Source: a virus
Taxonomy: Duplodnaviria > Heunggongvirae > Uroviricota > Caudoviricetes
Strand: one strand, 5' to 3'
DNA length: 11,676 bases
IMG/VR virus record: IMGVR_UViG_2740892258_000014
In this document: piece by piece, positions 3,084 through 6,545 of the stretch
Numbering within the stretch: the stretch's first letter is position 1
How the letters are laid out: the number at the start of each line of letters is the position of its first letter
Program-made: the position numbers and the translations under genes
Notes under the pieces: model-generated
Told to the model about the DNA's origin: nothing
Database searches by the model: none
What the model saw: the letters and a program-made list of their open reading frames with translations, nothing else

Positions 3084-3092
3084 ATAATTACC

Positions 3093-3160
3093 TCGTTGGA
3101 TGTTGTTAAAATTCCATTTGTATTTGATCAGAACGCTCGGTTGCCGCCGGGCGTTTTTTA
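3093..3160 (+). ncRNA. oop: OOP-like antisense RNA overlapping the 3' end of cII (approximate ends)
   Basis: Plus strand 3128-3160 (CAGAACGCTCGGTTGCCGCCGGGCGTTTTTTATT) matches my recollection of the 3' end and terminator of lambda OOP RNA; perfect TATAAT at 3083-3088 upstream could be pO. Stem CGCTCGG/CCGGGCG followed by a T-run. Confidence 0.5.
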
Positions 3161-3399
3161 TTGGTGAGAATCGAAGCAACTTGTCGTGCCAATCGAGCCA
3201 TGTCGTCGTCGACAACACCCCATTCAAGAACAGCAAGCAGCATTGAGAACTTTGGAATCCAGTCCCTCTTCCACCTGCTGATCTGCGACTTATCAACGCC
3301 CACAGCTTCCGCTGTCTTCTCAGTTCCAAGCATTGCGATTTTGTTAAGCAACGCACTCTCGATTCTTAGAGCCTCGTTGCGTTTGTTTGCACGAACCAT
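3106..3399 (-). CDS. cII: Transcriptional activator CII (lysogeny establishment)
   Basis: From ATG at 3399 the product MVRANKRNEALRIESALLNKIAMLGTEKTAEAVGVDKSQISRWKRDWIPKFSMLLAVLEWGVVDDDMARLARQVASILTNKKRPAATERSDQIQMEF is near-identical to lambda CII as I recall it (97 aa). The track ORF extends 29 codons further upstream, but that extension has no support. Confidence 0.9.
   Translation of the reverse strand: MVRANKRNEALRIESALLNKIAMLGTEKTAEAVGVDKSQISRWKRDWIPKFSMLLAVLEWGVVDDDMARLARQVASILTNKKRPAATERSDQIQMEF
3377..3390 (+). promoter_or_regulatory. CII-binding direct repeat TTGC-N6-TTGC (pRE -35 region), oriented toward cI
   Basis: TTGCGTTTGTTTGC at 3377-3390, just inside the 5' end of cII on the opposite strand, the same arrangement as lambda pRE. 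Confidence 0.65.
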
Positions 3400-3457
3400 A
3401 TGTAAGTATTTCCTTAACAAATAAGAAGTTATGCGCATCAACTTATGCGCGTTGTAT

Positions 3458-3500
3458 TCCCGCATTTCGGCGGGAATGAGGACCATGACTGTTAAAGAGC
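3458..3500 (-). promoter_or_regulatory. nutR: boxA (GCTCTTTAA) plus boxB hairpin (TCCCGC-CGAAAT-GCGGGA) in the pR transcript
   Basis: Minus-strand reading gives GCTCTTTAAC (plus 3492-3500) then, 16 nt later, hairpin TCCCGCCGAAATGCGGGA (plus 3458-3475); located 8 nt after the cro stop. The same boxA and boxB recur upstream of N (nutL). Confidence 0.75.
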
Positions 3501-3507
3501 AATTTGC

Positions 3508-3693
3508 TTATGCCGCTTTGCGGTAAGCGCTTTCTTGATACTTCAGGGCGCCAGCTGTAACGACTTCCAGTCGATAGGCGTCTTTCTCTGGGATGACTTC
3601 CTTCCACTGAGAGACTGCTGCGTCGCTAATGCCTAACGCTTTAGCTACAGCACGCTGGGTTCCGAAGTGGTCGATAACATCTTTCTTGTACAT
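3508..3693 (-). CDS. cro: Cro-type small repressor, divergent from cI
   Basis: 61-aa ORF with helix-turn-helix segment (QRAVAKALGISDAAVSQW); divergent from cI across an 80-bp operator region; followed by nutR and cII. Not lambda Cro in sequence, so a different immunity type. Confidence 0.75.
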   Translation of the reverse strand: MYKKDVIDHFGTQRAVAKALGISDAAVSQWKEVIPEKDAYRLEVVTAGALKYQESAYRKAA

Positions 3694-3773
3694 AGACTCG
3701 CTCCGAAATTAAAGAACACTTAAATTATCCACTAAAGGAATCTTAAGTCAAGTTTATTTAAGATGTCTTAACT
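3694..3773. promoter_or_regulatory. Right operator/promoter region (OR with pR toward cro, pRM toward cI)
   Basis: On the minus strand: -35 TTGACT (plus 3746-3751), 17-bp spacer, -10 ATAATT (plus 3723-3728), GGAG SD before the cro ATG. CTTAA(A/G) half-site motifs repeat at 3719, 3742, 3757 (inverted) and 3767. Confidence 0.65.
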
Positions 3774-4424
3774 ATGAAAACTCAATTGATGGGAGAGCGC
3801 ATTCGCGCTCGGAGAAAAGAACTCAAGATCAGGCAGGCCGCACTTGGAAAGATGGTCGGCGTGTCTAATGTTGCCATATCTCAGTGGGAACGCTCTGAGA
3901 CAGAGCCAAATGGAGAGAATCTTCTCGCCCTGGCTAATGCGTTGAAGTGTTCCCCTGACTATCTGATGAAAGGAGAGGAAAGTCTTTCAAACATTGCCTA
4001 TCACAGTAGGCATGATCCAAGAGGGTCATACCCTCTGATTAGCTGGGTGAGCGCAGGATGCTGGATGGAAGCTGTAGAACCATATCATAAGCGTGCAATA
4101 GATAACTGGTACGATACAACCGTAGACTGTTCAGAAGATTCGTTTTGGTTGGACGTGAAGGGAGACTCAATGACGGCTCCGGCCGGTCTCAGTATCCCTG
4201 AAGGAATGATAATACTCGTCGATCCTGAAGTAGAGCCGCGTAACGGGAAACTGGTAGTTGCAAAGCTCGAAGGAGAAAACGAGGCAACTTTCAAGAAGTT
4301 AGTTATTGATGCAGGCAGGAAGTTTCTAAAACCACTTAACCCACAATATCCGATGATCGAGATCAACGGAAACTGCAAAATCATCGGCGTAGTTGTCGAT
4401 GCAAAACTAGCAAACCTTCCATAA
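3774..4424 (+). CDS. cI: CI-type prophage repressor: N-terminal HTH (XRE) and C-terminal LexA-like S24 autopeptidase domain
   Basis: 216 aa; HTH region IRQAALGKMVGVSNVAISQWE; candidate Ala-Gly cleavage site in VSAGCW; Ser nucleophile in GDSM and downstream Lys (FKKL) typical of the S24 Ser-Lys dyad. Confidence 0.85.
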   Translation: MKTQLMGERIRARRKELKIRQAALGKMVGVSNVAISQWERSETEPNGENLLALANALKCSPDYLMKGEESLSNIAYHSRHDPRGSYPLISWVSAGCWMEAVEPYHKRAIDNWYDTTVDCSEDSFWLDVKGDSMTAPAGLSIPEGMIILVDPEVEPRNGKLVVAKLEGENEATFKKLVIDAGRKFLKPLNPQYPMIEINGNCKIIGVVVDAKLANLP

Positions 4425-4448
4425 GGGGGCATTCGCCCCTTTTTTTTT
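4425..4448 (+). terminator. Intrinsic terminator immediately after cI
   Basis: GGGGC-ATTC-GCCCC hairpin followed by a 9-T run, starting at the cI stop codon. Confidence 0.75.
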
Positions 4449-4470
4449 ATTTCCTTTAAAAATCAAAGCT

Positions 4471-4549
4471 AAACTTAAGTTACGAAAGAAAATTTAAGTT
4501 TTCTTCAAAAATACTCTTGACCATTAATTAAAGAGATCTTAAATTTAAG
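4471..4549. promoter_or_regulatory. Left operator/promoter region (OL/pL)
   Basis: Perfect palindromes AACTTAAGTT (4472-4481) and CTTAAATTTAAG (4538-4549) share the CTTAA(A/G) half-site seen in OR; candidate pL -35 TTGACC (4517-4522) with a TTAAAT/TAAATT -10 around 4539-4545 overlapping the palindrome. Confidence 0.55.
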
Positions 4550-4591
4550 CCATCAGCAGGACGCTGGAAGCCAAACGGAAAAGATTGGCAG

Positions 4592-4632
4592 GCTCTTTAA
4601 CATTGATGGGATTGTCCCGCCGAAATGCGGGA
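4592..4632 (+). promoter_or_regulatory. nutL: boxA (GCTCTTTAA) plus boxB hairpin (TCCCGC-CGAAAT-GCGGGA)
   Basis: GCTCTTTAAC at 4592-4601, then 13 nt, then TCCCGCCGAAATGCGGGA at 4615-4632; boxB is identical to the one in nutR. Confidence 0.75.
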
Positions 4633-4945
4633 ACCAAAGAGTAGTTGGCTTTGGGGTGACGTGAAGTGCAGCTGCACGACGGCAACCGGAAGATAAGCAC
4701 CCGGCGCGTCACCGCCAAAGTCAATTCCATAGGCGTTATGCAGCCGCCACCATATTCAAGAAAGCTGCACAAGAGGTAGGAGGATTTATGTGAATACTTA
4801 CATTCAATTGAGAGATTAATTAAATAGAACTGATCGAGCAGAGTCCATAAAGGCTCATAAATGCTCTTCCATCCCCGTCTAATTGGCGGGGAAGGAAACC
4901 ACTTTGTAATAAAAAAATTCCAAAGTTGTTTCATCGGAGGTCAAC

Positions 4946-5245
4946 ATGACAGTAGTCATTACATATCTGGCTGACGATAACGCCAGAAATCGCCGCAGAG
5001 CACGCAGACAGGCTCAACGTGAACAGGCAATGCAAGAACAGCGACTGGCGCGAAAGATTGCGCTAAAGCTCTCTGGTTGCGTCAGAGCAGACAAAGCAGC
5101 ATCACTCGGAAGCCTTCGCTGCAAGAAGGCAGAAGAAGTCGAGAGTAAACAGAATCGTATTTACTACCGCAAGCCACGCAGTGAAATGGGGGTGACTTGT
5201 GTTGGTCGCCAGAAAATGAAATTAGGAAGCAAACCACTTATTTGA
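4946..5245 (+). CDS. N: Antitermination protein N (arginine-rich N-terminus; lambda-N-like C-terminus)
   Basis: 99 aa; N-terminal Arg-rich motif NARNRRRARRQAQREQ; C-terminal YYRKPRSEMGVTCVGRQKMKLGSKPLI resembles the lambda N C-terminus (WYSKPGERGITCSGRQKIKGKSIPLI, from memory); GGAGG SD; preceded by nutL. Confidence 0.8.
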   Translation: MTVVITYLADDNARNRRRARRQAQREQAMQEQRLARKIALKLSGCVRADKAASLGSLRCKKAEEVESKQNRIYYRKPRSEMGVTCVGRQKMKLGSKPLI

Positions 5246-5340: not shown

Positions 5341-5524
5341 TAAGAATCAATGGTGTGGACAATTCAAGCGATGCAATGGATGCAAGCTGCAATCGGAATG
5401 CATGGTTAAGCCTGAAGAAATGTTTCCTGTAATGGAAGATGGGAAATATGTCGATAAATGGGCAATACGAACGACGGCAATGATTGCCAGAGAACTTAGT
5501 AAACAGAATAACAAGGCTGCCTGA
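5324..5524 (+). CDS. ral: Ral-like restriction-alleviation protein (66 aa, Cys-rich)
   Basis: MTTTIDKNQWCGQFKRCNGCKLQSECMVKPEEMF... matches my recollection of lambda Ral (66 aa) and lies just downstream of N; this rests on memory and is unverified. Confidence 0.55.
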   Translation: MTTTIDKNQWCGQFKRCNGCKLQSECMVKPEEMFPVMEDGKYVDKWAIRTTAMIARELSKQNNKAA

Positions 5525-5541
5525 TGGTGGCCTTTATTTTT
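5513..5541 (+). terminator. Intrinsic terminator-like hairpin after the ral-like gene
   Basis: AAGGCTGCC-TGATG-GTGGCCTT (9-bp stem with two G:U pairs; the stop codon is in the loop) followed by TATTTTT. Confidence 0.5.
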
Positions 5542-5582
5542 GTCCGTAAATAATTTCATGCTTATTACAATCAAGGTGATAT

Positions 5583-6194: not shown

Positions 6195-6545
6195 ATGAGT
6201 GAAGTAACAGATTTAGTTGTTATTGAAAAAGCAAATGCAATGACTGTATTTCAGTCTGCCGACCAGATTGAAGAAATTCTCCAAAAGGTTGAACGTGAAG
6301 TTATGTCATTTGTGCCTGATATCACAACGGCAAAGGGCAGAAAGGAGATCGCTTCTCTGGCGTATAAAGTTGCGCAGACGAAAACATATCTCGATGGTCT
6401 TGGCAAAGACCTTGTTGCTGAACTGAAGGAAATTCCAAAGCTAATTGATGCCAACCGCAAGACAGTGCGCGATCGCCTTGATGAACTGAAAGCCAAGGCG
6501 CGCCAGCCTCTTACTGATTATGAGGAAGAATCAGGCGCGGATTAA
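6195..6545 (+). CDS. Hypothetical protein (116 aa), upstream partner of the E/R/K-rich ORF
   Basis: Preferred start ATG 6195 with GGAGG SD 5 nt upstream (the track ORF starts at 6099 but that stretch contains a hairpin plus T8 run at 6155-6182). 3' end overlaps the next ORF by 26 nt in a different frame. Confidence 0.55.
   Translation: MSEVTDLVVIEKANAMTVFQSADQIEEILQKVEREVMSFVPDITTAKGRKEIASLAYKVAQTKTYLDGLGKDLVAELKEIPKLIDANRKTVRDRLDELKAKARQPLTDYEEESGAD

Follow-up and report, generated by a model that had tools for sequence, protein, structure and literature searches.

The early region of Enterobacteria phage CUS-3 carries two N-utilization (nut) sites, nutL and nutR, each composed of a linear boxA and a boxB hairpin, and the core of the hairpin is the same at both. 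We analysed them in the stretch of DNA IMGVR_UViG_2740892258_000014, which is 100% identical to CUS-3 (CP000711.1), the P22-like prophage of Escherichia coli K1 strain RS218. The reference throughout was the whole stretch of 11,676 nucleotides (nt), here called the window, and positions are window coordinates. We established the sequence, position and orientation of the two sites, the covariation of the boxB stem, and the strict co-inheritance of boxB with the arginine-rich motif of the antitermination protein N. Very probably, these are the nutL and nutR of CUS-3, working by the lambda paradigm with a recognition module of the HK620 class and a mosaic N protein.

The two nut sites and the mosaic N gene

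Employing pattern searches of the whole window, we found the boxB sequence TCCCGCCGAAATGCGGGA (TCCCGC-CGAAAT-GCGGGA) in exactly 2 copies, at 4615-4632 on the plus strand and 3458-3475 on the minus strand, with 0 mismatches. No further match was present in the window at up to 3 mismatches; the chance expectation was 0.01, and two or more matches occurred in 0 of 200 shuffles. A repeat finder returned the same pair as a 19-nt inverted repeat with 100% complementarity. The boxA sequence GCTCTTTAA was located by pattern search at 4592-4600 (+) and 3492-3500 (-), and the match between nutL and nutR runs on to a 10-mer, GCTCTTTAAC (4592-4601, +; 3491-3500, -). The 10-mer pair by itself is commonplace (at least two matches in 42 of 200 shuffles); the non-random element is boxA together with the hairpin, in equal order and spacing on both transcripts. 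boxA and boxB are separated by 14 nt in nutL and by 16 nt in nutR. The stem has 6 base pairs (bp) in nutL (UCCCGC-CGAAAU-GCGGGA; 4615..4632, +) and 8 bp in nutR (AUUCCCGC-CGAAAU-GCGGGAAU; 3456..3477, -), where 3458-3475 is the core common to nutL; as a 24-nt RNA, boxB reads UUGUCCCGCCGAAAUGCGGGAACC. Folded in isolation, boxB reached -10.5 kcal/mol with a z of -3.1, a stability matched by none of 200 shuffles. A permissive Rfam scan of the whole window showed nothing at the nut sites and only sub-threshold chance matches elsewhere. An earlier sequence-only reading of this DNA had reported two sites with an identical boxA and an 18-nt boxB; by direct reading and pattern searches, its sequences and coordinates proved correct.

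By alignment, the two GCTCTTTAAC elements of the window correspond to boxA-L and boxA-R as annotated in phage 21. The boxA of nutL also falls within the annotated nutL of HK620, and that of nutR (extending to 3491), which starts 8 nt past the stop codon of cro, is identical to the annotated nutR of HK620. The gene order around them, based on open reading frames (ORFs), Pfam and annotation, is lambdoid: P-O-cII-nutR-cro-PR/PRM-cI-PL-nutL-N-ral-...-cIII-kil. nutL separates PL from N, and nutR separates cro from cII; each site has the same sense as the transcript that carries it. A PL promoter-like site (TTGACC-17-TAAATT; 4517..4545, +) is overlapped by operator-like repeats, and aligning the site with pL of phage 21, whose start is annotated, suggests that PL starts near 4552, which would place nutL at about +41 to +81. 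A PR promoter-like site (TTGACT-16-GATAAT; 3724..3751, -), indicated by a promoter scan and operator-like repeats, would drive cro, nutR and cII. With promoter-like sites upstream and the PL start so aligned, both hairpins are therefore expected inside the early transcripts in sense orientation. The possibility raised in the sequence-only reading, that the promoters might lie downstream of the hairpins, was not borne out, promoter-like sites being upstream of both (4517-4545, +; 3751-3724, -). The identification as nutL and nutR held in position, in boxA-to-boxB order, in orientation and in the PL-nutL-N and PR-cro-nutR-cII contexts, and HK620 has identical sequences annotated as putative nutL and nutR.

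The N antiterminator gene (4946..5245, +; 99 amino acids) has a GGAGG ribosome-binding site 7 nt upstream and is the first gene of the PL operon. Its product, a small basic protein, matched PHROG 271 ('anti-termination protein N-like', E = 1e-36), and residues 63-99 matched the C-terminal segment of lambda N in the antitermination complex PDB 6GOV (E = 9e-4). The arginine-rich motif is contained in codons 1-33 (DDNARNRRRARRQAQ; core NARNRRRARR) and spans approximately residues 10-30 (DDNARNRRRARRQAQREQAMQ; ~4973-5035, +). Residues 8-32 read LADDNARNRRRARRQAQREQAMQEQ, with 7 Arg between residues 14 and 24.

CUS-3 N is 70% identical to phage 21 N, and the differences are almost all in residues 1-32. 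We compared the DNA of the region segment by segment, with identities of short segments to phage 21 taken as column counts on a three-way alignment of CUS-3, HK620 and phage 21; semi-global alignment of short segments was dropped, as boxB looked 79% identical by aligning elsewhere. Identity to phage 21 was 55/60 from the PL start through boxA and the spacer, 11/22 in boxB, 69/89 in the leader, 45/98 in N codons 1-33 and 193/201 (96%; semi-global alignment) in N codons 34-99. Relative to HK620, all segments in the three-way alignment were at least 94% identical (15/16 or better). So, judged from these segment identities, CUS-3 N is a mosaic in which three short patches, namely the motif, boxB-L and boxB-R, have been replaced within a phage 21-like scaffold.

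Co-inheritance of the N motif with boxB and the fold of the loop

To follow motif and hairpin across related phages, we fetched ~190 loci and tabulated 89 distinct N/nutL/nutR combinations; a profile search of genome contigs with the N alignment gave 5 loci only, of lambda type, of phage 21 type and one new-type pair. Two kinds of N-terminus, GTAKSRYKARRAELIAERR in phage 21 and DDNARNRRRARRQAQREQA in CUS-3/HK620, were found among the homologues, whose bodies are related. Of 73 distinct cases with the CUS-3/HK620 motif, 71 had a Y-GNRA-U boxB at nutL, the two exceptions being a contig end and a prophage with the immunity region deleted. The phage 21 motif was found with a CUAACC loop (8/8), the P22 motif with a GACAA loop (6/6), and the lambda motif with GAAGA in 1 case, the sole one with a detectable boxA. 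Among the 89 distinct combinations, no mixed pairing of motif and loop was present. In the IMG/VR loci encoding a CUS-3-type N, the boxB of nutL was unvaried in 79 of 80.

The rest of the locus has been reshuffled around these pairs. The C-terminal tail RQKMKLGSKPLI was found with all four motif types, and the CUS-3/HK620 motif occurred on several C-terminal modules (those of CUS-3, HK620, L088 and L177). A matched nutR/nutL boxB pair bracketed 8 clusters of unrelated immunity regions (less than 30% of 11-mers shared), and nutR, at 1.1-2.3 kb from N across swapped immunity regions, was still matched. Some loci with a CUS-3-type N showed no detectable nutR, no minus-strand boxA being present in the fetched flank; these are probably flank limits rather than counter-examples, because nutR can lie beyond that flank, as HK620 shows. 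The sequence-only reading had described a boxB unlike that of lambda, an N with a different arginine-rich motif and, from the two, a candidate distinct N/nut pair. In the comparison with lambda, P22 and phage 21 that it asked for, the loop differed from all three as found in related loci, and the CUS-3 motif was unlike those of phage 21, lambda and P22. The pair as a distinct type gained strong support from the co-occurrence and the lack of mixing; it is not new, being that of HK620.

Some loci showed further arrangements. In L047 (IMGVR_UViG_2731957842_000007, 1-2800), a CUS-3-type N stands beside tail-fibre-like genes, and upstream of it there is neither a repressor nor cro nor a nut site; the locus lacks both nut sites because the immunity region is missing from a rearranged or deleted prophage. 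In Pseudocitrobacter faecalis (L089, NZ_QNRL01000008.1), the N-terminus MTNREHKKLLRAIRHQQQLRDNQ is joined to the C-terminal tail RQKMKLGSKPLI, with boxA at 2505 (+) and 1215 (-) and the hairpins GGCCU-GAUUC-GGGCC and GGGCU-GUUCC-GGCCC; this locus may represent a further motif/boxB specificity class. In L182, L183, L185 and L192, a P22-type N is carried on a Cronobacter-like C-terminal module, and nutL has a GACAA pentaloop closed by U-A. The nutR of these four loci (minus strand, upstream of N) is ACCGC-CGACAAC-GCGGU, in which a C-C mismatch encloses GACAA; this is the same mismatch-under-loop design as in the boxB of CUS-3 and phage 21.

Covariation was examined on 13 distinct boxB variants aligned over an 8-pair helix. 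Cells of this helix were paired in 88.5% of instances versus 31-64% in slid-partner controls, and 4 of the 8 stem pairs were changed on both sides (for example G-C to A-U, C-G to U-A and U-A to C-G). Some stem variants contain G-U wobbles (UG:2 at one pair). None of 500 shuffles equalled the alignment in pairing or in covariation score. These compensatory substitutions support the view that the boxB stem is kept as an RNA structure. In the loop, only CGAAAU, UGAAAU and CGUAAU were seen: the G, the two 3' adenines and the last U never change, and only position 1 (C/U) and the N position of GNRA (A/U) vary. A survey of GNRA-like motifs describes the CUAACC hexaloop of phage 21 (PDB 1NYB) as GNRA-like in fold, with a non-canonical C-C pair beside it, and the GACAA loop of P22 as a GNRA fold from which a C is extruded (PMC12550061). 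By analogy, the CUS-3 loop would be C-[GAAA]-U, a true GNRA tetraloop closed by a pyrimidine-U mismatch. The 6-nt loop of the sequence-only reading is what thermodynamic folding gives, and a GNRA tetraloop on a pyrimidine-U mismatch is the likelier structure.

Other readings of the hairpins have to be weighed against this one. It is highly improbable that they are not RNA signals for N at all and serve as DNA inverted repeats (protein-binding or recombination boundary) or as parts of terminators. In favour of such a role, the CUS-3 record annotates no nut sites and marks 4425-4926 only as 'bsq5; boundary sequence', nutR adjoins the tR1 region, and the stem arms are palindromic as DNA. A DNA operator was nevertheless rejected: the loop is asymmetric and reads CGAAAU along the transcribed strand in both CUS-3 sites and in every one of over 300 copies inspected, so that its asymmetry follows the direction of transcription; the G-U pairs among the variants fit RNA and not DNA pairing; and the type of loop goes with the type of N-terminal motif in N. 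The hairpin is, moreover, always 14-16 nt 3' of boxA. A terminator was rejected since neither hairpin is followed by a U-run and neither was called in the terminator scan. It is conceivable, if somewhat doubtful, that the loop is a genuine hexaloop, unstructured or forming a U-turn, which is read base by base. Thermodynamic prediction gives 6 nt, with three loop variants a GNRA pattern could be chance, and the equal-length loop of phage 21 uses UAAC and not GNRA. Yet the positions that vary in CUS-3-type loops are just the two that are expected to be free in Y-[GNRA]-U (C to U at position 1 and A to U at the N position), the solved phage 21 hexaloop is tetraloop-like and closed by a non-canonical C-C (PMC12550061), and the nutR variants of P22 type show C-GACAA-C.

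A further reading is that the nut sites are true ones whose specificity is not distinct: the RNRRRARR motif would read any GNRA-like loop, including GAAAA/GAAGA of lambda and GACAA of P22, and the pairing seen in genomes would reflect linkage and history. A core A-x-[T/S/N]-R-x-x-x-R-R is shared, with A13, R16, R20 and R21 invariant between CUS-3-type and phage 21-type N, the lambda motif RRRERRAEKQAQ aligns weakly to RNRRRARRQAQRE, and the loop contains GAAA as in lambda. We consider this unlikely, as none of the 89 combinations was mixed despite freely reassorted C-terminal modules and immunity regions, nutR stayed matched at its distance across swapped immunity regions, and the CUS-3 motif has no Trp at the position of lambda W18 while stem and closing pair also differ. 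Several points weigh against a distinct HK620-class module as we propose it. nutL and the motif are only 100-600 bp apart, so that their co-inheritance may be due, at least in part, to linkage; linkage does not easily account for a nutR that still matches where immunity modules have been exchanged. Both the RRRxRR core and the GAAA loop are reminiscent of lambda, and some cross-recognition of lambda boxB is possible. The covariation sample is small (13 distinct sequences from related phages, most copies identical), the GNRA-plus-mismatch fold draws on 3 loop variants and analogy, and thermodynamic folding treats the loop as a plain hexaloop. The Pfam model N_peptide scored 18 bits on CUS-3 N, below its threshold of 27.9, and the identity of N therefore rested on PHROGs, PDB and direct comparison. 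Finally, the searchable literature contained no binding, antitermination or Nus-dependence experiment for the N/boxB of HK620 or CUS-3.

Proposed mechanism, surrounding features and prior annotation

In the lambda model, the N motif binds boxB of the nascent RNA, NusB/NusE assemble on boxA, and NusA and NusG are recruited; N inserts its C-terminus into the polymerase, and the tethered complex reads through terminators (PMC8632103, PMC3526286). By homology to lambda, the PL and PR transcripts of CUS-3 would carry a linear boxA, bound by host NusB/NusE, and then the boxB hairpin, to which the N-terminal arginine-rich motif of CUS-3 N would bind. The complex of N, NusA and NusG would stay tethered to RNA polymerase and permit readthrough of the tR1 region before cII (hairpin 3433-3450), of the hairpin after ral (5513-5534) and of terminators beyond. 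The recognition module would consist of the motif ..ADDNARNRRRARRQAQREQ.. and a boxB with YGNRAU on a G+C-rich stem. Binding, the involvement of Nus factors and antitermination in CUS-3 are all predicted by this analogy.

The candidate targets of such readthrough can be placed on the map. The tR1 region (3400-3455, -) contains the hairpin GCGCAU-AAGUUG-AUGCGC (3433-3450, -), and HK620 annotates tR1 and the start of cII at equivalent positions. Past ral, an intrinsic-terminator-like hairpin (5513..5534, +) is a candidate tL1; phage 21 has an annotated terminator in the same relative place after ral. A sub-threshold Rfam match to the small RNA (sRNA) STnc230 at 5502-5582 (-) (27 bits versus a gathering threshold of 50, E = 1.8) overlaps this hairpin. 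The site may be a bidirectional terminator and not an sRNA, since each strand bears an annotated terminator at the corresponding place in phage 21.

The genes of the early region were assigned as follows. P (488-1864, -) and O (1861-2808, -) are followed by cII (3106..3399, -), the first gene 3' of nutR, with Pfam Phage_CII matching residues 1-90 of its 97-amino-acid form (E = 5e-48). cro, of P22/phage 21 type, lies upstream of nutR (3508..3693, -; Pfam P22_Cro, E = 9e-28). The prophage repressor (cI/c2, LexA-like; 3774..4424, +) matched Pfam HTH_3 and Peptidase_S24, and its terminator was called by the terminator scan at 4423-4442 (+). In CP000711.1, cII is annotated as a coding sequence of 126 codons from ATG 3486, crossing the boxB of nutR, and HK620 starts the gene at the ATG equivalent to 3399, with AAGGAAA ahead of it. 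Based on the Pfam coverage and HK620, the CUS-3 annotation probably places the start 29 codons too early. On the strand opposite the 3' end of cII, there is a strong terminator-like hairpin with a T-run (AGAACGCTCGGTTGCCGCCGGGCGTTTTTTATT; 3130-3157, +) with TATAAT upstream (3084-3089), which we take to match the 3' end of the lambda OOP antisense RNA; the permissive Rfam scan showed no match at this hairpin. In the PL operon, an ORF of 214 amino acids (6520-7164, +) is mainly of E/A/K/R-rich low complexity (..AEEEAKAAAEALAKQ..EAEAKAKAEIEAAARREAEAKAAAERAERE..) and is only 'hypothetical' in CUS-3.

The leader between nutL and N showed features of its own. Right after nutL, there is a long stable hairpin (4647-4722, +; GGCUUUGGGGUGACGUG...CGCGUCACCGCCAAAGUC), and the leader segment holding it is 88/89 identical to HK620 and 69/89 to phage 21. 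On inspection of the alignment, its pairing appears to be kept via G-C/G-U and U-G/C-G changes, and the whole PL leader folds with z = -4.6. This hairpin may correspond to the one that RNase III processes in the N leader of lambda. Between the conserved hairpin and the N ribosome-binding site, CUS-3 carries a 206-nt insertion (4725-4930, +) that is not in HK620 or phage 21; among the phage collection, its only relative was in HK140 (71% identity), and 134 E. coli genomes carry it. The insertion contains a strong Shine-Dalgarno sequence, AGGAGG (4778-4783), followed by ATG-TGA (4788-4793), a start-stop mini-ORF; alternatively, a 9-codon ORF could start with GTG at 4790. Across the relatives, the distance from boxB to the ATG of N varies from 108 to 565 nt, so the leader is an insertion hot spot. 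RefSeq (PGAP) places an antisense 'hypothetical protein' of 129 amino acids (WP_011478232.1; 4545-4934, -) over nutL, the leader hairpin and the insertion; this ORF is probably spurious.

The nut sites are already known at the annotation level since HK620 (2001), and they are common in E. coli prophages. In the HK620 record (AF335538.1), the identical sequence (53/53 nt) is labelled 'nutL; putative N-utilization leftward', and the copy between cro and cII is labelled 'nutR; putative N-utilization rightward' with tR1 next; from boxA to the start of cII, this record and the window agree in every nucleotide. With the 53-nt nutL region as query, 26 phage records were retrieved, of which 25 had at least 99% identity, including HK620, HK630, HK140, mEpX2, IME10, N7 and some Stx phages. 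The identical nutL was present in 496 of 5,426 complete E. coli genomes (~9%), and in the RefSeq E. coli genomes nutL is unmarked and N is named 'hypothetical protein' (WP_000219338.1). The CUS-3 sites are an ordinary member of the textbook lambdoid N/nut system, of the HK620 class.

The predicted mechanism is that of the lambda N paradigm, and no new biological question is opened. The practical value is one of annotation, since the CUS-3 record and RefSeq leave the nut sites unmarked, and N 'hypothetical', although about 9% of complete E. coli genomes carry the module. The region also provides a clean natural example of three short patches (motif, boxB-L and boxB-R) that co-vary while their surroundings are reshuffled. 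The residual interest, which is modest, is in an uncharacterised and probably orthogonal peptide/RNA recognition pair. Tentatively, on the strength of the sequence comparisons, the HK620/CUS-3 class might constitute a fourth structurally distinct, orthogonal N-peptide/boxB pair, in which a Trp-less, lambda-like arginine-rich helix reads a GNRA tetraloop on a pyrimidine-U mismatch. If so, the pair could add an RNA-tethering tag beside the lambda, P22 and phage 21 pairs. The genome paper of epsilon34 likewise infers a novel boxB specificity from a novel N-terminus (PMC2629481); such reasoning is therefore standard in the field.

Comparison with known N/nut systems

H-19B, an experimentally studied system of a Stx phage, is of the same mechanism class, and the HK620 record calls its own N similar to the N proteins of H-19B and phage 21. 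The H-19B motif, 12-RSRRRER-18 (PMC3526286), differs from NARNRRRARR of CUS-3; judged on the protein motif alone, CUS-3 is not of the H-19B type.

Lambda has the same architecture and genomic placement as CUS-3, and the polymerase-binding C-terminal segment matched in 6GOV is homologous; the two also share the motif core RRRxRR and the loop sequence G-A-A-A. The lambda boxB, however, has a 5-bp GCCCU/AGGGC stem and a GNRA-like GAAAA/GAAGA pentaloop closed by U-A (seen in L092), so that stem, closing pair and loop length all differ and CUS-3 falls outside the lambda type. The lambda motif MDAQTRRRERRAEKQAQW contains a Trp, whereas the CUS-3 motif does not, and the middle of the protein is unrelated. 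According to the notes in the database records, boxA is CGCTCTTA in lambda and GCTCTTTAAC in CUS-3.

The gene 24 protein and boxB of P22 (PDB 1A4T) represent the same system in the same placement. P22-type motifs share a C-terminal module with the CUS-3-type N proteins of Cronobacter, and the P22-type nutR variant C-GACAA-C has a pyrimidine mismatch under the loop, as in CUS-3. The P22 loop (GACAA, with its C extruded; PMC12550061) and motif (GNAKTRRHERRRKLAIERD) differ from those of CUS-3, and P22-type pairs occur separately, in L178-L192.

Phage 21 (OL657228.1; nuclear magnetic resonance complex 1NYB) is closer. At the DNA level, its PL-boxA-spacer segment, leader and N codons 34-99 agree with those of CUS-3 at 78-96% identity, the boxB of either phage has a formal hexaloop with a pyrimidine at each end, and A13, R16, R20 and R21 are invariant between the two types of N. 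The loops (CUAACC versus CGAAAU), the stem sequences and the motifs (GTAKSRYKARRAELIAERR versus DDNARNRRRARRQAQREQA) are different, and the two classes were never mixed in the loci examined; in CUS-3, only the surrounding scaffold is phage 21-like.

The closest system is that of HK620. Residues 1-62 of its N, arginine-rich motif included, are essentially identical to those of CUS-3 N, whereas its C-terminus is different (..ECSGSICLPNVAIYAAGYRKSKQLTAR, 90 amino acids) and that of CUS-3 is phage 21-like. The immunity regions differ, and the N leader of CUS-3 has the extra 206 nt. Both features of the HK620-type class are present in CUS-3: the motif ..ADDNARNRRRARRQAQ.. in N and a boxB of the form ..CCGC-YGNRAU-GCGG.. 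at both nut sites.

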